Of a DNA stretch of 64,000 nucleotides, positions 1,342 through 50,766 are shown in pieces. Both the position numbers and the translations under genes were made by a program. This DNA is from Nitrospinales bacterium (GTDB taxonomy: Bacteria; Nitrospinota; Nitrospinia; Nitrospinales; VA-1). Every line of letters starts with the position of its first letter. The first letter of the stretch is position 1. The stretch is taken from contig OZ253496.1 of assembly GCA_965262115.1 (NCBI GenBank), forward strand, positions 1,696,001-1,760,000. Reading direction: 5' to 3'. Below the pieces are notes generated by a model, which had not been told where the DNA came from, did not search any database, and saw only the letters and a list, made by a program, of their open reading frames with translations.

Positions 1342-3621
1342 ATGTTGAAAAAAGCCCACATTTTTTTTGCGGCCCTGATTGGTTTTACTCTTCTTATCTC
1401 GGTCCCCTTTGTGTTTGCTCAAGAAGGTGAAAACATCCAGTCCGTGAAGGTGCAAGGGAACAAGAGGATTGACGAGTCAACGATCCTCTATTACATCAAA
1501 TCCAAGCCCGGCACCGTTTTCTCCAAAAAACAAATCCGTGAGGATATCGAGCAAATATACAGCCTGGGGCAATTCAAGGACATCCGTGTTGAAACGCGCG
1601 AGACCCTGAAGGGGCTGGAGGTTGAATTTTTTGTCGAAGAGATTCCTTCAATTGAGGATGTTGAAATCGTGGGGACTGACAGGGTTGACGCGAATGACAT
1701 CCGGGAAAAAATTAGGCTCAAGCGGGGAGCGACTTTTAGTGATCACCTGGTTCTGGAAAACAGTGAGGAAATCCTCAAGCTTTATCGTGAGAAAGGATAC
1801 TTTTTTGCCCAGGTAAATATCGATACCCAGTCCGGTCAGGAAAACATGGTTAACGTTACCATCAGGATCAAGGAAGGAGAAAAGGTAAAAATTGAAAAGA
1901 TCCGTTTTTCAGGAAACAGATCCTTTCCGGATAAAGAACTCCGTGAACAGATGGAAACTCAGGAAAGGACCTGGTATTCCTTTATAGATGATTCAGGAGT
2001 GTACCAAAAAGATATCTTGAAGCTGGATATGTTCCGGGTAGAAGGTTTTTACCACGATCACGGTTTTCTCAGGATCAAGGTATTGGAGCCTCGTATAGAG
2101 ATCAACAAAAAATCCAGGGAAGTTCATATTGCTATCCCGGTTGAGGAAGGTCCGCAGTTTCGCGTGAAGACTTTGGACTTGAGTGATGATGATGCGGTTT
2201 CTCCGGATGAAATTCAAAAAAGCATTCAGACGAAGGTTGGCGACATCTACAATGTGTCCCAGCTTCGTCAGGATATTTTAACGATCACTGATTTGTACTC
2301 CCAAAAAGGTTATGCCTATGCTGACGCGAACCCGATATCCAAGTTAAACGATGAAGATCGCACCGTTGATTTGTCCATTGAAGTCGATAAAGGCAAAAAG
2401 GTTTATGTTGGCAATATTGAAATTCTGGGAAATATTAAAACCCGGGACAATGTTATCCGCCGTGAATTCCGGCTGAAGGAAGGGGAGTTGTTTGACGGTT
2501 CCAAATTGAAGCGGAGTAAACAACGGGTCAACAACCTCAACTTTTTTGAAGATGTCAAGATTGATACCCATAGAGGCCAGGATCCTGACCTCATTGATAT
2601 CCTCACGACAGTGACAGAAAGGCCGACCGGGTCGTTTTCAGTAGGTGCTGGTTTTAGCTCGGTTGAGAATTTGATTTTTACTACCTCCATCACCCAGGAC
2701 AACCTGCTCGGAAATGGTCAGAGGCTGAGCTTGAATGCCCAGTTGTCCTCCATCCGTTCGGATTTTAATTTAAGCTTCACCGAGCCGCGTTTGTTTGATT
2801 CCGAAATACTATTTGGAGTCGATGCGTTTAATGAGGAGCAGGATTTTCTCAGCTTCGATTCCCAATCAATCGGAGGCGGTATTCGCCTGGGTAAAAATAT
2901 TTCTGAGTATGATTCAGTTAACCTCAGATACCGATTTGAGGATGTAGAGGTGACGGGGGTGGCCGCAGACGATGAAACGGAGTTTTTTAAGAATGAGACC
3001 CGCGTGACCAGCAGAATTGCTCCCACCTATGTTCATGATTCGCGGGATAATTTTTTAAATCCTTCCAGGGGATGGAGGCATGTGGTAGGATTTGAACTCG
3101 CCGGCCTGGGAGGCGCTAAATTCACCAAATCCTTTTATGAAGTGACGTACTACCACCCCCTGTGGGGGAAGCTTGTTGGTGCGGCGCACGCCCGGATTAA
3201 TTACGCGGCGGGGTATGGTGGAGAAAAGCTTCCAAGTTTTGAAAGGTACTTCATGGGAGGGCCGACTTCCCTCAGAGGCTTTACGATTGAAGATGTCGGG
3301 CCAAAAGATAGGGATGGCGATCCGGTAGGGGGTAACCAGGCACTTCTTTTGAATTTGGAATTACAGTACCCCTTTACCAAATCTTTTCGCGGGTTTGTGT
3401 TTTATGACCGTGGTAATGTTTATGGCAGTCGTCCTGACACTGGTACTGCATCTACTACATCCGATAATTTTGACTTGGGAAAAATGCGCAGCAGCGTAGG
3501 CGCGGGTATTCGTTTTATCAGTCCTTTTGGCCCACTGGGTTTTGCCTATGGCATCAAGCTGGACAAGGAAACTGGCGAAGAGGCGGCAGAATTTCATTTC
3601 TCGGCAGGAAGCGCATTTTAA
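1342..3621 (+). CDS. bamA: Outer membrane protein assembly factor BamA
   Basis: Signal peptide after ATG 1342, POTRA repeats, LRGF motif, SPFGPL, C-terminal Phe; upstream of skp-fabZ-lpxA. Confidence 0.95.
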   Translation: MLKKAHIFFAALIGFTLLISVPFVFAQEGENIQSVKVQGNKRIDESTILYYIKSKPGTVFSKKQIREDIEQIYSLGQFKDIRVETRETLKGLEVEFFVEEIPSIEDVEIVGTDRVDANDIREKIRLKRGATFSDHLVLENSEEILKLYREKGYFFAQVNIDTQSGQENMVNVTIRIKEGEKVKIEKIRFSGNRSFPDKELREQMETQERTWYSFIDDSGVYQKDILKLDMFRVEGFYHDHGFLRIKVLEPRIEINKKSREVHIAIPVEEGPQFRVKTLDLSDDDAVSPDEIQKSIQTKVGDIYNVSQLRQDILTITDLYSQKGYAYADANPISKLNDEDRTVDLSIEVDKGKKVYVGNIEILGNIKTRDNVIRREFRLKEGELFDGSKLKRSKQRVNNLNFFEDVKIDTHRGQDPDLIDILTTVTERPTGSFSVGAGFSSVENLIFTTSITQDNLLGNGQRLSLNAQLSSIRSDFNLSFTEPRLFDSEILFGVDAFNEEQDFLSFDSQSIGGGIRLGKNISEYDSVNLRYRFEDVEVTGVAADDETEFFKNETRVTSRIAPTYVHDSRDNFLNPSRGWRHVVGFELAGLGGAKFTKSFYEVTYYHPLWGKLVGAAHARINYAAGYGGEKLPSFERYFMGGPTSLRGFTIEDVGPKDRDGDPVGGNQALLLNLELQYPFTKSFRGFVFYDRGNVYGSRPDTGTASTTSDNFDLGKMRSSVGAGIRFISPFGPLGFAYGIKLDKETGEEAAEFHFSAGSAF

Positions 3622-3642
3622 ATTTTAAAAAGGATCAGATTT

Positions 3643-4185
3643 ATGCGATTGACAATTTTTCGGAAGTTCAGAATCATCTGCCCACTACTCATTTTGGGTT
3701 TTTTAGTTTGCGGACCTTTTGCAGTTTCGTCTTTTGCCGCAGATAGCCGGATAGGGTTTCTGAATATTCAAAAAGCGGTTTCCAGTACCAAGGAGTGGAA
3801 AACCAGGTTTAAAAAATTTAAAACGGATTTCACCAAAGAGAAGAAAAGAATCAAGGTTAAGGAACGGAAGATCAAAAAAATGTTGGAGGATTTGAATAAA
3901 CAAAGCTTTGTTCTGGATCCGAAGCTGAAAAAGAAAAAAGAAGACACATTTAGAAAAGAAAAAGTTGCTTTTGAAAGATATGTCCAGGACCAGAACGCGG
4001 AGTTCGGTAAAAAAGAAAAAGAAATGGCCCAAAAAATCCTGCTTAAAATGATGGGGATCATAAAAAAAATCGGCAAAGAAAAGAAATATACAATGATCCT
4101 GGAGCAGAAGTCGGTTCTATATCACGATAAAGGAAACGATTTGACGGGCATTGCGACCCGGGCCTATAACAGGGCTAATAAATAG
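3643..4185 (+). CDS. skp: Periplasmic chaperone Skp/OmpH, copy 1
   Basis: Signal peptide, IGFLNIQKAV start, Lys-rich coiled coil, DLT near C-terminus; synteny with bamA. Confidence 0.88.
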   Translation: MRLTIFRKFRIICPLLILGFLVCGPFAVSSFAADSRIGFLNIQKAVSSTKEWKTRFKKFKTDFTKEKKRIKVKERKIKKMLEDLNKQSFVLDPKLKKKKEDTFRKEKVAFERYVQDQNAEFGKKEKEMAQKILLKMMGIIKKIGKEKKYTMILEQKSVLYHDKGNDLTGIATRAYNRANK

Positions 4186-4275
4186 TTTCTGGTTATGCTC
4201 CAGCTAAAATAACCTGCTCGACTCCCGCGCTTGAACTCGCTGAAATTTCCAGAAAAGTCATAGGCATTCAACAGT

Positions 4276-4343
4276 GAGACCTTTGCATAACCTCGAAGGG
4301 GTAATCTCGCTTTTCTGTTTTTTTCGACTTATGCAAAGCTCTC
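4276..4343. mobile_element. 68-bp internally deleted MITE (GAGA[C/G]CTTTGCATAA TIR family)
   Basis: TIRs GAGACCTTTGCATAA / TTATGCAAAGCTCTC; flanks TTCAACAGT / TTTAACAGT (8/9 TSD). Confidence 0.85.
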
Positions 4344-4462
4344 TTTAACAGTAAGAATGGACTCCTGATATGATGGATATTAATGAAATCAAGAAAATCA
4401 TACCCCATAGATATCCTTTCTCGGCAGGAAGCGCATTTTAAATTTTAAAAAGGATCAGATTT

Positions 4463-5005
4463 ATGCGATTGACAATTTTTCGGAAGTTCAGAATCATCTG
4501 CCCACTACTCATTTTGGGTTTTTTAGTTTGCGGACCTTTTGCAGTTTCGTCTTTTGCCGCAGATAGCCGGATAGGGTTTCTGAATATTCAAAAAGCGGTT
4601 TCCAGTACCAAGGAGTGGAAAACCAGGTTTAAAAAATTTAAAACGGATTTCACCAAAGAGAAGAAAAGAATCAAGGTTAAGGAACGGAAGATCAAAAAAA
4701 TGTTGGAGGATTTGAATAAACAAAGCTTTGTTCTGGATCCGAAGCTGAAAAAGAAAAAAGAAGACACATTTAGAAAAGAAAAAGTTGCTTTTGAAAGATA
4801 TGTCCAGGACCAGAACGCGGAGTTCGGTAAAAAAGAAAAAGAAATGGCCCAAAAAATCCTGCTTAAAATGATGGGGATCATAAAAAAAATCGGCAAAGAA
4901 AAGAAATATACAATGATCCTGGAGCAGAAGTCGGTTCTATATCACGATAAAGGAAACGATTTGACGGGCATTGCGACCCGGGCCTATAACAGGGCTAATA
5001 AATAG
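4463..5005 (+). CDS. skp: Periplasmic chaperone Skp/OmpH, copy 2 (identical)
   Basis: Identical to 3643-4185. Confidence 0.85.
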   Translation: MRLTIFRKFRIICPLLILGFLVCGPFAVSSFAADSRIGFLNIQKAVSSTKEWKTRFKKFKTDFTKEKKRIKVKERKIKKMLEDLNKQSFVLDPKLKKKKEDTFRKEKVAFERYVQDQNAEFGKKEKEMAQKILLKMMGIIKKIGKEKKYTMILEQKSVLYHDKGNDLTGIATRAYNRANK

Positions 5006-5095
5006 TTTCTGGTTATGCTCCAGCTAAAATAACCTGCTCGACTCCCGCGCTTGAACTCGCTGAAATTTCCAGAAAAGTCATAGGCATTCAACAGT

Positions 5096-5163
5096 GAGAC
5101 CTTTGCATAACCTCGAAGGGGTAATCTCGCTTTTCTGTTTTTTTCGACTTATGCAAAGCTCTC
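5096..5163. mobile_element. 68-bp MITE, second copy created by the tandem duplication
   Basis: Identical to 4276-4343 with the same flanks. Confidence 0.85.
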
Positions 5164-5189
5164 TTTAACAGTAAGAATGGACTCCTGAT

Positions 5190-8346: not shown

Positions 8347-8417
8347 GTCTGGCGAGCCGCCGGTGGCTGTGATACTCCCAACATTAGCTTCATGCCCCGA
8401 AGCAACTGTGTTAAATG

Positions 8418-9368
8418 TCAAGTGCTGGCAATGAGATTTTCATTCCAGAGTGTTTTTGTTTTGATCATGGTATTGATGATCGTTAATAACTTTCTCATGC
8501 ATGCGGTAATGGCAACTTTAAAGGGTTTGCCCTTTTCGATGAGGCGTGTGTAAAAGGTACGAATCACGGGATTATGCTGCATGGCAGTGACGGCGGCCAT
8601 GTATAAAGCGGCACGCACATTGGCGCGACCGCCCCAGATACACCGGCGGCCCCGGAACTTTCCGCTGTCCCGATTGAGGGGAGCGAGACCGATGAGGGCG
8701 GCGATTTGCTTCTGATTAAGAACTCCAAGTTCCGGAACCCCGGCCAAGAGGTTGACAGCCAGAACGGGACCGGCACCGGGAACACTTTGTATGATCTGGT
8801 CGTGCTCACGCCAGGCAGAACTGTTTTTGATGGTTCTGGAAAGGTCGCCATCGATTTTTCGCAAGCGTTTTTTAAGAGATTCGATATGCTCCTTAATGTC
8901 TTTACATATCCATTTTGGAGCTTGTTTTAGACGGGTTTTTTCTTTGGTCAGCATCTCGATCAACTGGCGACGGCGTGTCACTAGAGCTGAGAGTTCAAGA
9001 GATTCTTCGTCTTTGATTTTCCTGACCTCAGGACGTATGGCCTTGGCAAAATGGGCCAGCACAAGAGAATCAATGACATCGGTTTTTGCCAGTTTCCCGG
9101 TGGCTTTGGCAAAATCACGAACTTGCCGTGGGTTGACCACGGCTACTGGCAGTCGACCCGCAACCAGGGCCGAAGCCAACGGGATCTCTAAGCCGCCTGT
9201 GGCTTCCAAAACGATCAATGGAGGATTTAAGGCGGATAAACTCTCGACCAAACCAGCAATCCCTTCTTCATTGTTAGCGGTTTGCCAGGTTTCTTGAGTC
9301 ATGCTGTCAGCAACATCCAGATGGAGTTTAGAAATATCGATGCCAATAAAATGGGGTTTCTGATTCAT
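8418..9368 (-). CDS. IS110-family DEDD recombinase/transposase
   Basis: IGIDISK, LEATG, KTDVID (RuvC-like DEDD), SVPGAG, GLAP...DSGK (Tnp-domain Ser). Confidence 0.96.
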   Translation of the reverse strand: MNQKPHFIGIDISKLHLDVADSMTQETWQTANNEEGIAGLVESLSALNPPLIVLEATGGLEIPLASALVAGRLPVAVVNPRQVRDFAKATGKLAKTDVIDSLVLAHFAKAIRPEVRKIKDEESLELSALVTRRRQLIEMLTKEKTRLKQAPKWICKDIKEHIESLKKRLRKIDGDLSRTIKNSSAWREHDQIIQSVPGAGPVLAVNLLAGVPELGVLNQKQIAALIGLAPLNRDSGKFRGRRCIWGGRANVRAALYMAAVTAMQHNPVIRTFYTRLIEKGKPFKVAITACMRKLLTIINTMIKTKTLWNENLIAST

Positions 9369-9375
9369 AATTTGG

Positions 9376-9585
9376 TCTCCCAGCCTTGCCGATGCGGGCT
9401 CAGTGGCCCAGGCAACTGTTCGGGTTAATCAAAATAGGACACAACGATCTGCGCTTCGGGACGGGCTTAAAAGCCCAAGGGGTAAACGATCTATTGTGCC
9501 CTGAATCAAATCCTGGGAGCTTGTGGAAAACACAAAACCGGCTTCCCACAGGGCTCACAGGTACAACTACTACAAATTCCCCTTA
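9376..9585 (-). ncRNA. Predicted IS110 bridge RNA, copy 1 (ends approximate)
   Basis: Guides on minus strand: LTG 9478-9486, RTG 9454-9460, LDG 9412-9419, RDG 9385-9388, each pair flanking an internal hairpin. Confidence 0.8.
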
Positions 9586-9874
9586 TGAACAACATACAAG
9601 GGGTAAACTGGCAATATCTTTAACTTCTGGGCAAAAAGTTATCTCGGCTTGAGAAACTCCACTGGAACGTCATCGCGAGCTGCGGCGCGGCGATCCAGTT
9701 TTGTTTGCATCATGCCCAGAAGGGGTAAAATAAAGGCATTGTAATCTGCCACCGGCGGCTCGCCGGTTAACCCGAGATGCTGATCGAGAACAAAATGAAG
9801 ATAATGGAAATTACCAGCGGAGGTTCTCCGCCCACTAGCTGTGGAGGCAGGAGCAATGCCCATGGAGCGAGAGC

Positions 9875-21880: not shown

Positions 21881-22048
21881 GAGACCTTTGCATAACCCAA
21901 GATTCTTCGTTGCAATAGCTCCTCAGAATGACAAAATAGCCTTTTATTGTCATGCTGAGCTAGTGATATTTGACCTTTGAATTCTTGCCCCGTAGGGGTA
22001 TCTCGAAGCATCTCGCTTTTCTGCTTTATAGACTTACGCAAAGGTCTC
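21881..22048. mobile_element. 168-bp MITE carrying an inserted ~39-nt mini-element
   Basis: TIR GAGACCTTTGCATAA / TTACGCAAAGGTCTC; perfect 9-bp TSD CTTAAGAAC. Confidence 0.92.
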
Positions 22049-22173: not shown

Positions 22174-23531
22174 ATGAGTTACCAAATTACATTAAACACC
22201 TGGTCGGGATCGAGTAAGGCCGAGGCGGCCGAAAAGCTTGCCAGCGTGTTTCGGCTGGGTAGCGACAAGGCCATGGCTGTTGTGGATAATTTATGCCAGG
22301 GGATGCCCTGGCGTTTCGACCGGCCTATTCCCGATAGTCAGGCGGATGGTGCATCGACCTATCTTCGGAGCCTGGGGTTTGCCGTGGACATTCAATCTGT
22401 CGAAGGCGAGATCGAGCCTCTGCCTGATGCCGTTGCTGTGGAAGCGGCTCCCCAAAAAAGGAGAGCTTTGCATAACCCAAGATTCTTCGTCACCTTGCTC
22501 CTCAGAATGACAAAATGGCCCAGTATTGTCATGCTGAGCTTGTCGAAGCATCTCGGTTCTCCGATTTTTCGACTTATGCAAAGGTCTCCCAAAAAAGAGG
22601 AGGCGGGTGTCTCCACACCCGAAGACAGCTATCGGTTCAAGTTCCAGGGGGATGGTCGCATCCTTTTGAATATCAGTTTTGTCAACCTGATCAAGACAGT
22701 GTTCACTCTTGGTATTTACCGGTTCTGGGCCAAAACCAATGTCCGCCAATATATCTGGAGCCAAACTTTATTTTCAGGGGACCGTTTTTCCTACCATGGT
22801 ACTGGCAAGGAGCTAATGAAGGGGGCCATCCGGTTTGGCTCAATCTTAATACTGCTGATTTTGGCAACGGTATATGTAACCTTCAACATTGGGCCTGAGG
22901 CAGGCGAACTGGCTTCCGACTTGCTCGGTTTCATTATTCTTATTATGATTCCGGCGCTCATGGTGGGGGCCTGGAGATACCGGCTTTCTCGAACTGCCTG
23001 GCGCAATATCCGTTTTTCCTTCCGGGGGAAAAGAATGGGGGGATTTTATTAGTATTGACTTTAGGTCTTTACTGGCCGTTCTTCAAAATGAAAACTGAAA
23101 AGTTCTGGCGAGAAAATTCCTGGTTTGGGGATGTGCAGTTTCGTTTTTCCGGGACAGGAAAAGATTTTTTTGGAAAATTTATTCTCTCCATTATTCTCAC
23201 TCCGCTCACGCTGGGGGTTTATCTGTTCTGGTTCACCGCTGATTTAAAGCAGTATCTATGGTCCCATACCCATGTTGGCGGGGCGACCTTCCATTTCCCG
23301 ATAAAGGGAAAAGATTATATGAGCTTAAAGGTGGCTAATTTTTTCATTATCCTGTTTACCTTAGGGTTGGGTTTCCCCTGGGTGGTGGTCCGCAATCAGA
23401 AGTTTGTGACGGACAACCTGACTCTTGCCGGGAATATCGAATTAAACCGGATAGTCCAGGAAATGAAAGACAGTGGAGCATTTGGAGAAGAAGCTCTGGA
23501 TGCCATGGATGTTCCCATTGATATGGGTTAA
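22174..23531 (+). pseudogene. DUF898 (YjgN-family) membrane protein, split by frameshift near 23040-23055 and carrying a MITE
   Basis: ORFs 22174-23052 and 23055-23531 both carry YjgN-type repeats (TLGIY.FW, F.Y.GTG); upstream of an M48 peptidase, the usual partner. Confidence 0.78.
22461..22588. mobile_element. 128-bp MITE inside the DUF898 reading frame
   Basis: TIR GAGAGCTTTGCATAA / TTATGCAAAGGTCTC; perfect TSD CCAAAAAAG; identical to 49756-49883. Confidence 0.95.
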
Positions 23532-31466: not shown

Positions 31467-31719
31467 CCCACTCGGCGTGGCCAGCGTGACGCTGGACCCA
31501 ATGAGCAAGAAGTGATCTTGATTTTTTCTGGCTCCGCGCCGAGCGGTCAGCGACCGAGGGCAGATAGTAAGAGCGTATAAGGCCGAGACATCTCTTTTTT
31601 TGCCAGCAGAGTCATGCTCATTGTACCCCTCCTACCCCTTTGGGGCATGAGACAAGTGAAGAAATATCACAGGCTCATGAAAACTAATGAGGGGGTATCA
31701 CAGCCCCACGCCGAGTGGG
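31467..31719. repeat. Composite repeat block bounded by 14-bp inverted repeats, containing a REPIN-like core and two nested mini-elements
   Basis: CCCACTCGGCGTGG ... CCACGCCGAGTGGG; core 31567-31617; mini-elements 31624-31701 and 31633-31670. Confidence 0.7.
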
Positions 31720-32934: not shown

Positions 32935-33078
32935 GATTTGTGAGGGCCTTTATTTATTCGGTAATTTTCTCTGTGGCAACTCGCAGGCCCTTATTTCATA
33001 AGGTCTGCTCGTGGCTGTTATATTCTTCATCAGCTTTCATGCCCCATAGGGGTACAAAAACAACTTTTAGAGGTACTC

Positions 33079-34789: not shown

Positions 34790-34971
34790 AATCGTGTCTG
34801 CTCTCTTTTTTAAATTTTGCTTAATTGATTATTTTGTTATACCGGCGTTATCACCGGCGGCCGTGATATTCTTCCTAAATCTTCGTGCCCCGGAGGGGTA
34901 AAATTGCAATGTCTTTATTATGCGGACAAATGTTCTCTCGGCTTATAAGCTATTGCCCATTGCTTCTCTCG

Positions 34972-37555: not shown

Positions 37556-37789
37556 TTTCTTTACCCCCTACGGGGCACGAAAACTGAGGAAGAATATCAC
37601 GTGCTCACTGGCCTCACGCCCGGTGGCCCCTGCAAAGGTCTCTTCCGCAAGGGGGCCAGGGGGATTTGACGGGCCGTATGTAATTTGCCAGTGGTGGCTA
37701 CACCGCCTTAATTCACTGCAAGCAAAGGCGATTTAGTGTATAAATGTAACTTCATTTAAAACTCCATAAAATTCGAGGTGCAGGAAGGC

Positions 37790-38635: not shown

Positions 38636-39167
38636 CCGACCAACGGCCGGTGGCAACCACTGGCGTGAGGCCAGTATAAATGCTCCTCCCCTGACAAGGG
38701 GAGGCTGGGAGGGGTTGCTTTAGTCGTCATTGCGAACCGAAACGGCGTGACCGTGATAATTCACCTTAGCCTTTGTGAGCTTGTGATGTCCTTTTCCTCA
38801 AACTTCATGCCCCGCAAAGGCAAAATGAAGGCATGATAATTTTCCTTTCCTGCCAAGGGGTCCGGCTCGACAAGTCTTTGCCTGACTCGTCGCAGGGGAA
38901 AATAGCAATGACCCATTGTTCGCCTGCAGACGAATCGTTTACCGATGAAAAATCCGTCCATATCCCTGTTTTTATTTTTTGCCTTGTTGTTAAGGCAGTT
39001 GTTATAATGAAGCGCTCCGTAGAGTCGGATAAAACGGTTCAGATGTTGTGGACGTAAAGTAAGTCCTCGCCTATTGAGGTTGAGGCCGCTTCTGAGTAAG
39101 TCGGATTGTTAGACGGATTGTGCCCTTCTTGGCGTGAAACTATTATTTACAATGTTATGGGGTAGCC

Positions 39168-41945: not shown

Positions 41946-42406
41946 GAGAGCTTTGCATAATCTGGGATTACCCCTTCTACCCGTTCCGGGCATGAAAGCT
42001 TGGGTGAAATATCCTCAACATTAGTCTTCATGCCCGGAACGGGTAGAAGGGGTAATCCCAGATTATGCAAAGCGAGATTCTTCGTCACCTTGTTCCTCAG
42101 AATGACAAAAGTACTTCTTCTTGTCATTCTGAACGCAGTGAAGCAATCCAGGGTTTGATTTAGTAATACTTCCTCTCCCTTCATAGGGAGAGGATTGAGG
42201 TGAGGGTTTGATTTCCGCCTACAGCCTTCTCCAGAGCTTTTCCTCAAACCAGAACCTGGATCGCCACGCTCATTTTAGTTGCTCGCGATGACGGGAGCGG
42301 GTAATTGTCATTCTGAACGAAGTGAATACGTGATGTTTCACCCAAGCTTTCATGCCCCGAAGGGGTAATCTCGCTTTTCAGGTTTTTCGACTTATGCAAA
42401 GGTCTC
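41946..42406. mobile_element. Composite MITE with nested repeats, including a perfect 47-bp inverted repeat
   Basis: Same TIRs as the other MITEs at both ends, no TSD visible; arms 41950-41996 / 42027-42073; mini-element 42330-42367. Confidence 0.8.
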
Positions 42407-48329: not shown

Positions 48330-48415
48330 AACTTTCCAAATATTTAAAGATTAGCGCGGAGTACCTCCGCAGGTAATTTGCAATATCTTTATCTTACCCC
48401 TTGTATGTTGTTCAT

Positions 48416-48625
48416 AAGGGGAATTTGTAGTAGTTGTACCTGTGAGCCCTGTGGGAAGCCGGTTTTGTGTTTTCCACAAGGCTCACAGGGTTTGATTCAG
48501 GGCACAATAGATCGTTTACCCCTTGGGCTTTTAAGCCCGTCCCGAAGCGCAGATCGTTGTGTCCTATTTTGATTAACCCGAACAGTTGCCTGGGCCACTG
48601 AGCCCGCATCGGCAAGGCTGGGAGA
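48416..48625 (+). ncRNA. Predicted IS110 bridge RNA, copy 2 (ends approximate)
   Basis: 5' stem-loop; LTG TTTACCCCT 48515-48523; RTG CCCGAAG 48541-48547; LDG ACAGTTGC 48582-48589; RDG CAAG 48613-48616. Confidence 0.82.
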
Positions 48626-48632
48626 CCAAATT

Positions 48633-49583
48633 ATGAATCAGAAACCCCATTTTATTGGCATCGATATTTCTAAACTCCATCTGGATGTTGCTGACAGCAT
48701 GACTCAAGAAACCTGGCAAACCGCTAACAATGAAGAAGGGATTGCTGGTTTGGTCGAGAGTTTATCCGCCTTAAATCCTCCATTGATCGTTTTGGAAGCC
48801 ACAGGCGGCTTAGAGATCCCGTTGGCTTCGGCCCTGGTTGCGGGTCGACTGCCAGTAGCCGTGGTCAACCCACGGCAAGTTCGTGATTTTGCCAAAGCCA
48901 CCGGGAAACTGGCAAAAACCGATGTCATTGATTCTCTTGTGCTGGCCCATTTTGCCAGGGCCGTACGTCCTGAGGTCAGGAAAATCAAAGACGAAGAATC
49001 TCTTGAACTCTCAGCTCTAGTGACACGCCGTCGCCAGTTGATCGAGATGCTGACCAAAGAAAAAACCCGTCTAAAACAAGCTCCAAAATGGATATGTAAA
49101 GACATTAAGGAGCATATCGAATCTCTTAAAAAACGCTTGCGAAAAATCGATGGCGACCTTTCCAGAACCATCAAAAACAGTTCTGCCTGGCGTGAGCACG
49201 ACCAGATTATACAAAGTGTTCCCGGTGCCGGTCCCGTTCTGGCTGTCAACCTCTTGGCCGGGGTTCCGGAACTTGGAGTTCTTAATCAGAAGCAAATCGC
49301 CGCCCTCATCGGTCTCGCTCCCCTCAATCGGGACAGCGGAAAGTTCCGGGGCCGCCGGTGTATCTGGGGCGGCCGCGCCAATGTGCGTGCCGCTTTATAC
49401 ATGGCCGCCGTCACTGCCATGCAGCATAATCCCGTGATTCGTACCTTTTACACACGCCTCATCGAAAAGGGCAAACCCTTTAAAGTTGCCATTACCGCAT
49501 GCATGAGAAAGTTATTAACGATCATCAATACCATGATCAAAACAAAAACACTCTGGAATGAAAATCTCATTGCCAGCACTTGA
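48633..49583 (+). CDS. IS110-family DEDD recombinase/transposase
   Basis: 316 aa; differs from copy 1 at AHFARAV versus AHFAKAI; DEDD and DSG motifs intact. Confidence 0.96.
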   Translation: MNQKPHFIGIDISKLHLDVADSMTQETWQTANNEEGIAGLVESLSALNPPLIVLEATGGLEIPLASALVAGRLPVAVVNPRQVRDFAKATGKLAKTDVIDSLVLAHFARAVRPEVRKIKDEESLELSALVTRRRQLIEMLTKEKTRLKQAPKWICKDIKEHIESLKKRLRKIDGDLSRTIKNSSAWREHDQIIQSVPGAGPVLAVNLLAGVPELGVLNQKQIAALIGLAPLNRDSGKFRGRRCIWGGRANVRAALYMAAVTAMQHNPVIRTFYTRLIEKGKPFKVAITACMRKLLTIINTMIKTKTLWNENLIAST

Positions 49584-49755
49584 CATTTAACACAGTTGCT
49601 TCGGGGCATGAAGTACCCGTGCCGGGCATAAAGATTAATGAAGAGGCCATCACAACCGATGAGGGGTCATAACATGCTGCCAATGTGCTTTTGGTGAGCC
49701 GAGAGTATCGTTGCTAGCGGTAAAAAGCTATTGCCCACTGCCTGCCCCTGCCAAG

Positions 49756-49883
49756 GAGAGCTTTGCATAACCCAAGATTCTTCGTCACCTTGCTCCTCAG
49801 AATGACAAAATGGCCCAGTATTGTCATGCTGAGCTTGTCGAAGCATCTCGGTTCTCCGATTTTTCGACTTATGCAAAGGTCTC
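49756..49883. mobile_element. 128-bp MITE
   Basis: TIRs as above; perfect 9-bp TSD CCTGCCAAG; identical to 22461-22588. Confidence 0.95.
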
Positions 49884-50187: not shown

Positions 50188-50766
50188 TCAGGTTACAGGC
50201 TGGACTATGTTGGCTTCTTTGCCGATAAAATAATGTTGTCGATAAAAGACAAGTTCTTTAAGAGATTCCCGGATATCCGTGAGGGCCATATGCTCGTTGC
50301 TTTTTTTGGGGAATTTGGGACCGTCCGGGTACCAGCGGTTCACCAGTTCTTTGACGGAGGTCACATCAATACTTCTATAATGTAAAAAATCATGCAAATC
50401 ACTCATATATTTTGTGAGGAATTTTCTGTCCTGATTGATGGAGTTTCCACATAAAGGAGATGTGCCTTTGGGGCAGTATTTCTTGATAAACTCCAAAGTT
50501 CTTTTCTCGGCCTCCTCTTGATCTATCAAGGATTCGCGCACCCGTTTGACCAGCCCCGATGCATTATGGTGTTTGGTGTTCCACTCATCCATTTGATCCA
50601 AAATCTCGTCTCGTTGATGAATGGCGATGCAAGGCCCTTCCTCAAGAATATTCAATTCGCTGTCAGTAATCAGGGTGGCGATTTCAATGACGACTTCTTT
50701 TTTCGCGTCCAAACCAGTCATTTCCAGATCTATCCACACCAGATTGTATTTAGATTTTCGAGCCAT
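50188..50766 (-). CDS. orn: Oligoribonuclease
   Basis: WIDLEMTGLD, LCGNSI..DR.FL, HYRSIDV, H.ALTDIRES. Confidence 0.96.
   Translation of the reverse strand: MARKSKYNLVWIDLEMTGLDAKKEVVIEIATLITDSELNILEEGPCIAIHQRDEILDQMDEWNTKHHNASGLVKRVRESLIDQEEAEKRTLEFIKKYCPKGTSPLCGNSINQDRKFLTKYMSDLHDFLHYRSIDVTSVKELVNRWYPDGPKFPKKSNEHMALTDIRESLKELVFYRQHYFIGKEANIVQPVT

Follow-up and report, generated by a model that had tools for sequence, protein, structure and literature searches.

The small dispersed repeats SDR1-8 of the Nostocaceae are described as very small (about 20 bp), restricted to a lineage and precisely inserted, with an unknown enzyme (PMC5861425, PMC4390886, PMC2884548). REPs are defined in one account by a GTAG or GTGG tag (PMC6006769), and in another the unit that moves is their inverted doublet, the REPIN (PMC3116915); RAYT is reported to cut between C and T where the two final GTAG bases direct it (PMC8266576). 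For IS608, four guide bases 5′ of each hairpin foot are said to choose the cleavage sites, the left site lying 19 nt upstream (PMC3201880). The element considered here was noticed in a window of 64,000 nt from a Nitrospinales bacterium, and its mobile unit is 39-41 nt long with a small hairpin at one (3′) end. Elhai et al. reportedly described the Nostocaceae repeats SDR1-8 in 2008 (Genome Res 18:1484). SDRs nest in themselves and in other repeats. In its behaviour the element appears closest to these cyanobacterial repeats: like them it is very small, lineage-restricted, precisely inserted and nested in repeats and in itself. Unlike them it measures 39-41 nt rather than about 20 bp, belongs to a different phylum and has no fixed target such as HIP1, and the two are likened by description only.

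The unit reads N-GTGAT, a G-poor spacer (503/7164 bases) and then TTC-N′-TG-CCCS-GNA-SGGG-TA, where the foot of the hairpin is (T/C)TC-N′ and the first base, N, precedes GTGAT and belongs to the unit. Each unit has a single hairpin and no second subterminal one. The hairpin covariation reported in the original prediction holds, with the stem-top pair Watson-Crick in 89% of 197 unique copies. Besides the stem, the strongest covariation is that of N with N′, the base just 5′ of the stem: the two are complementary in 88.6% of 455 unique copies drawn from all genomes and loci (T:A in 249, C:G in 140 and A:T in 13), against a shuffle mean of 48.8% and maximum of 56.0%. Because the shuffles ignore relatedness, the weight of the N:N′ pairing rests on the result for spacer clusters (89% over 228 clusters vs 52%) and on three identical spacers, each seen with two different pair types. 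The G after N faces a near-invariant C at the foot (428/455 unique copies); N and G being complementary to C-N′, joining of the ends would lengthen the stem by 2 bp. In DNA folding, the extended stem formed in 8/8 of the commonest copies when these were treated as circles (at weak energies of -1.8 to +0.1 kcal/mol) and in none treated as linear strands.

The triloop, read without constraint, is G in 95%, any base, and A in 99% (n=178), that is, GNA, which has been described as a very stable DNA loop (PMC3201870). This bears on the alternative that the element moves via a small RNA and a reverse transcriptase (RT). The spacers are diverse (378 types among 466 unique copies) and RT genes occur in three of the five genomes tested, as such a route might have it, but the loop is of the DNA type, substitutions are mostly ordinary transitions (123/179) and orientation to transcription is unbiased (80 sense vs 84 antisense). 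RT is moreover broken in the source genome and was not found in the relatives G007 and G019; its presence does not track the element, and it was rejected as the mover. Movement through RNA is thus very unlikely.

All the copies first listed in the window are present (Table 1), far above chance: the hairpin pattern gives 327 matches genome-wide vs 7 in a Markov-3 control. Their locations were right, while the 5′ starts had been placed one base short (the true limits are 21962-22000, 34862-34900 and 33016-33054) and the end-to-end pairing had been missed. Three sites entered as single copies, at 31624-31702(-), 38752-38822 and 48395-49674(-), are nested pairs, and the fused pair at 41978-42045 had gone unlisted. 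At 9690-9727 a copy does exist, but its apparent GTGAT-like start (GCGAT) probably belongs to the neighbouring repeat, so that the copy itself looks 5′-truncated. The 168-bp MITE around the focal copy had been equated with the 128-bp MITE plus the module; it contains the 39-nt unit and, in addition, an unrelated 1-nt indel (empty 128-bp forms lie at 22461-22588 and near 49756). Elsewhere in the window, 3591-5168 holds an 820-bp near-identical tandem duplication with a 180-aa ORF (3643-4185 and 4463-5005) and a MITE remnant, which is either a recent duplication or an assembly artefact. The first 100,000 positions of the source chromosome (G000:C1:1-100000) look unlike the rest of it: their GC content is lower (0.38-0.44), the initial 40 kb contain CA microsatellites, and position 50216 has a broken RT. 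They are possibly foreign DNA in the assembly.

Table 1. Copies of the element and their hosts in the 64-kb window.
Feature	Position	Strand	Remarks
Focal copy	21962..22000	+	A-type, 39 nt, with N=A paired to the foot base T; lies within the 168-bp MITE
Host MITE, filled form	21881..22048		terminal inverted repeats, CGTC-type hairpins inside
Copy, C-type	34862..34900	+	between rpsI and rplM
Copy, T-type	33016..33054	+	between argJ and argC
Nested copy	31633..31671	-	just before the loop of another copy's hairpin
Host copy split by nested copy	31624..31702	-	AG not CC at -4,-3 from the insertion point
Copy, C-type	37562..37601	-	one extra G in the 3′ arm
Copy with decayed 3′ arm	38782..38822	+	nested behind host half-copy 38752-38781
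Copy with C.A mismatch at end pair	42329..42367	+	in a CGTC-type repeat
Two 5′-truncated copies, head-to-head fusion	41978..42045		inverted pair
Copy split by IS110	8368..9605	+	IS at 8403-9598, AG core duplicated
Host copy	48395..49674	-	nested copy 49614-49654 in spacer, IS110 48402-49598 in hairpin
Degenerate copy, probably 5′-truncated	9690..9727	+	apparent start part of the neighbouring repeat

The genome as a whole carries about 350 copies. A profile count, as first suggested, returned 348 nhmmer hits at E<=0.1 and 0 at E<=1 in the reversed genome. The copies are mostly intergenic (55/348 overlap naive ORFs) and show no bias of replication strand (175 vs 173). Across the phylum, a strict pattern was positive in 36/120 genomes with silent controls: the source genome and 34/69 others of its family, 1/21 of a second family and 0/29 of the rest. 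A GTDB scan found at least 80 loci, and among the matches listed 78/80 bore Nitrospinota titles; of the two outliers, one seems to be a chance hit within a gene and the other a genuine copy in a bin that bears a different label. Phage and plasmid collections gave no real match, and three copies were found in viral contigs. Rfam gave 0 matches in the window at the gathering score (and one chance match inside argJ), and a full-text literature search, with most subscription papers outside its reach, gave no description of the element or of any Nitrospina repeat. The element is lineage-restricted, real and mobile.

Mobility is seen most directly in empty sites. When 49 boundary pairs were tested against empty junctions elsewhere in the genome, over 209 flank pairs, the best boundary ran from N through GGGTA: its removal restored 73/209 flank pairs vs 5 when N was left behind, and 29 exact junctions vs 0. 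Neighbouring diagonal values of 48 and 45 arise because the first base equals the next target base at those sites. In relatives, the clean insertion that had been claimed at 34862 is confirmed: the site of 34862-34900 is empty in G013 and G019, and contigs of runs X8 and X11, from two other studies, skip exactly 39. The site of 33016-33054 is empty in G013, G007, G003, G015 and run X8, and here the relatives lack 40 nt, the unit plus one extra C (at 33055). A third site, in the coding sequence of an IS3, is filled in the source genome and empty in G016, with exact ends. The presence/absence polymorphism that had been anticipated therefore exists at two window sites and the IS3 site, and the claim that insertion makes no target duplication stands at two of these three precise orthologous empties, the one at 33016 having its extra base. 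A systematic orthologue comparison, limited to 855 kb of G013, scored 164 G013 copies as 3 empty, 7 shared, 79 rearranged and 75 without orthologue, and 260 copies of the source genome as 7 empty, 9 shared, 49 rearranged, 194 without orthologue and one not scored. Two of the ten scored empties are tandem-unit differences; the totals stay as low as 10 empties and 16 shared copies since rearrangement, or the lack of a matching region, affects most of the intergenic DNA.

The targets fall into at least 70 families (109 with looser data), and 88 pairs of near-identical copies sit at unrelated targets. Over the 109 families the target logo is weak, with G at -5 in 57%, A at -2 in 4%, A/T at +2 in 76% and no enrichment at -4; no fixed position within target hairpins was seen. 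The spacer was rejected as a target guide in both fixed and sliding register, and the foot TTC might conceivably act as a guide for -5..-3 (G at -5 in 186/261 copies with C at that foot position vs 5/14 without). Another repeat is touched by 152/246 intergenic copies vs 9% of random points. A C-rich hairpin repeat, which we take to be associated with DUF559, is a frequent target. This enrichment comes in part from co-amplification, many copies having been amplified inside CGTC arrays and an IS3, and both observations would suit an element without mobility of its own that spreads only within larger repeats and by gene conversion. Hardly any weight can be given to such passive spread, given the number of target families, the conserved ends with their compensated end pair and above all the precise single-copy orthologous empties, which largely refute it.

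Copies that host a second copy immediately ahead of their own hairpin loop mostly read AG instead of CC at -4,-3 upstream of it. AG occurs in 16/23 distinct filled host-insert pairs vs 0/744 empty occurrences (the latter a redundant count in which loci overlap), and the change spans different host spacers and end types, with the junction-adjacent base following the host. Over the sites with identifiable empties, the paired change of C>A at -4 and C>G at -3 is found in 13/115, in two target families. This recurrent change at two bases is a target scar, and in the window it is carried by 31672-31702(-) and likewise by the host half-copy 38752-38781. A native GAGCC|GAAGG target is present in the CGTC repeat, so carry-over of flank is possible, and the AG hosts may descend from a few reshuffled composites.

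The scar is better explained by nick-primed copying, in which a nuclease nicks the target and the end so freed takes a resident copy as its new template, is extended over the 39-41 nt bounded by the fold and returns, sometimes with a few flank bases copied along. The native target in the CGTC repeat could be the donor of that flank, and these genomes commonly carry small nuclease genes of the GIY-YIG and DUF559 kinds (GIY-YIG in 5/5 tested). The ends are however exact in dissimilar targets, including the unique IS3 coding site, and spacer and flanks show no similarity or complementarity (|z| up to 1.1 over 274 pairs). DUF559 was not found in the element-rich G007, G004 and G078, and the GIY-YIG genes have CGTC repeats, and not the element, at their flanks; both were rejected as movers for want of a link to the element. 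Nick-primed copying is possible, then, but on balance rather doubtful.

In the loci examined, small stand-alone GIY-YIG genes (about 95-116 aa; for example L095-L104 and positions 662742, 2573218 and 2378957 of the source genome) are tightly flanked by inverted CGTC-type repeats. CGTC repeats have been described as lacking a dedicated transposase in a paper whose main text never mentions GIY-YIG (PMC3733652). DUF559 has nine matches in the source genome, for example at 377385, 660936 and 735444. Copies of the element themselves form head-to-tail arrays of up to 15 units. Within arrays (814859-815015 of the source genome; L105-L135), units before a neighbour with a different first base have a foot that matches the neighbour in 12/45 cases, for which the comparison is 41 mismatches in 557 lone units; slippage may account for this, or else a repair of the stem where two units meet.

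The IS that splits copies belongs to the IS110 family (316 aa; window 8403-9598 and 48402-49598). In the source genome, the left half of the element's hairpin precedes the IS at 26/26 left ends and the right half comes after it at 24/26 right ends, with the 2-nt AG core duplicated. This target is shared by IS110 relatives in G013 and G019; a 65%-identical one in G027 uses a different repeat. Since the recombinase occurs in only 5/70 genomes, it is a parasite of the element rather than its mover. The IS3 (411149-411899 of the source chromosome, G000:C1, with other copies and L019) carries the element in 20/20 site matches, drawn from the source genome and its fetched loci and some of them counted twice. 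The insert directly follows the slippery run located between orfA and orfB; the relative in G016 is empty, and the IS3 has multiplied with this frame-shifting insert aboard.

The short GC-rich intergenic hairpin, the hundreds of copies and the use as an IS110 target are shared with the REP/BIME/REPIN and RAYT systems as these are described (PMC8266576, PMC3116915, PMC3733652, PMC6006769), and the pairs N:N′ and G:C, between the 5′ foot and a dinucleotide close by, fit the geometry of the RAYT system, though N itself is inserted. The element might be a REP once served by a RAYT-type Y1 that was lost or only visits, with TTCN′ as the guide, the cut between N and G, and N re-made opposite N′ at each insertion. 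The two pairs match the reported geometry of a cut between C and T chosen by A3G4 of a guide at the 5′ foot (PMC8266576), the spacing resembles that given for the IS608 left end, with its site 19 nt from the foot (PMC3201880), and IS110 targets the element as IS621 is reported to target REPs (PMC3184786). Yet there is no GTAG or GTGG at the hairpin's 5′ foot, the polymorphic mobile unit is a singlet and not an inverted doublet, and none of the 21 Y1 loci examined in the family has the element at its flanks. If the cut fell after N, that base would stay behind in the donor, whereas N, the paired base, travels with the element and is missing from empty targets, and the 3′ end has no N-G site. 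An origin as a RAYT-served REP is therefore unlikely.

IS608, as described, likewise has a hairpin about 20 nt from the paired end site, no target duplication and a presumed single-stranded circle. Unlike in IS200/IS605, one hairpin here serves both ends and is flush with the 3′ end, and there is no fixed target tetranucleotide, no TnpA/TnpB found and no strand bias; unlike in IS608, the guide-paired base N is absent from empty targets. The geometry is thus copied, but because N travels, there is one hairpin and there is no tag, doublet or cognate gene, the element somewhat resembles IS608 and RAYT systems and does not appear to be a member of them. In integrons, the circular cassette rebuilds the cut-stem hairpin of attC, its first bases pairing with the far end. 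Such cassettes share with the proposed circle of the element the rebuilt hairpin, and with the element itself the insertion behind a resident unit that builds arrays; the element is far shorter than attC and has no core motifs and no ORF. With IS91 and Helitrons it shares a 3′-terminal hairpin, tandem arrays and the lack of duplication, but Y2 was not found in 4/5 genomes tested, there is no fixed target and the ends are exact rather than one-ended. Unlike a DDE MITE, the unit has neither terminal inverted repeats nor target duplication. The membership in IS200/IS605, RAYT or IS91 that was at first considered finds no support, and the REP-tag, doublet and flanked-Y1 tests were all negative, as was the Rfam search. 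The element is of an SDR/REP-like kind; what is newly defined is the end clamp and the target scar.

In the search for an enzyme, the source genome yielded no gene for a Y1, a Y2, a relaxase or a Rep protein. Y1 (PF01797) is present in 16/70 family genomes, including some without copies of the element, and was not found in G000 (the source), G013 or G007. It had been suggested that copies flanking a Y1 gene be sought, and none of 21 family Y1 loci examined is flanked, the nearest copies lying about 850 nt off, beyond another ORF. The Y1 proteins inspected, of roughly 330 aa, were rejected as mover; their terminal repeats are unrelated and of the TIRYT kind. Y2, TnpB, Rep_trans and relaxase were not found in G000, G013, G007 or G019; Rep_1 gave no match either, in a search whose controls were silent as well. 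Over the five genomes tested, TnpB was found in one, Rep_trans and relaxase in none, and Y2 (PF04986, a family for which the controls gave no signal) in G078, about 2 kb from a copy. Tyrosine recombinases, present in some genomes, were rejected as not linked to the element, and the element-richest genome, G013, has only two, of XerC/D size. Cas1 was rejected too: it occurs in 9/70 genomes without tracking the element, and cas-like genes or arrays surround the five loci inspected. The source genome has three cas1 loci (768805, 2126375 and 2643996; L323-L325), one with 12 repeats at 60-bp spacing and no cas5/6/7-sized genes after cas3, and another that adjoins a fragmented large gene, with no array detected. 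Nothing convincing came from a HUH-motif scan of the source genome and of 855 kb of G013, from clusters of paralogous small ORFs, from ORFs flanked by copies (source genome and retrieved loci) or from orphan 3′ ends, which could have betrayed a long autonomous form. Many of the genomes being incomplete, these enzyme genes count as not found rather than as absent.

The ends of the element are exact, insertion makes no regular duplication, the targets are loose and on either strand, the end pairs with the foot and the loop is of the DNA type, all of which is directly observed. The reading preferred here, to which we give about an even chance, is that this gene-less element of 39-41 nt travels as a folded single strand, probably a minicircle, cut and rejoined by a putative trans-acting strand-transfer enzyme. 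Pairing of N-G with C-N′ would clamp both ends together, and in a circle or tandem junction the stem would be continuous and 2 bp longer. The enzyme would open the circle between the last A and N, and the opened strand would be joined to a nicked single-stranded target that is loosely chosen (G at -5, rarely A at -2, A/T at +2). Less firmly, the chemistry might be tyrosine/HUH-like, and the enzyme might visit the lineage or be an unrecognised host protein. Of the single-stranded HUH transposition first envisaged, the single-stranded DNA hairpin is supported by the GNA loop, and HUH-like chemistry keeps the standing of a suggestion. Much of the copy number comes from secondary amplification in MITEs, CGTC repeats and an IS3 and by slippage. 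Pure cut-and-join leaves the CC-to-AG host change and the extra C at 33055 unaccounted for. The fruitless enzyme search, the even use of both replication strands and the weak energies of the folded circles also count against this reading. Tentatively, and with well under an even chance, the element could represent an undescribed class of minimal transposon, in which one hairpin and a 2-bp clamp would let a single-stranded circle of 39-41 nt serve by itself as the whole donor, to be inserted duplication-free by an unrecognised enzyme that also rewrites two target bases upstream of the junction.

How very small bacterial repeats such as REPs, SDRs and CGTC elements spread is a long-open question. 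The exact ends, the natural compensatory variants of the end pair and the two-base scar offer a defined 40-nt substrate with clear predictions for finding the enzyme, and an integrase that inserts DNA this short precisely and with no duplication would attract interest both for its mechanism and as a tool. In the nitrite-oxidiser lineage itself, the element reshapes intergenic DNA and serves as the landing pad of an IS110.
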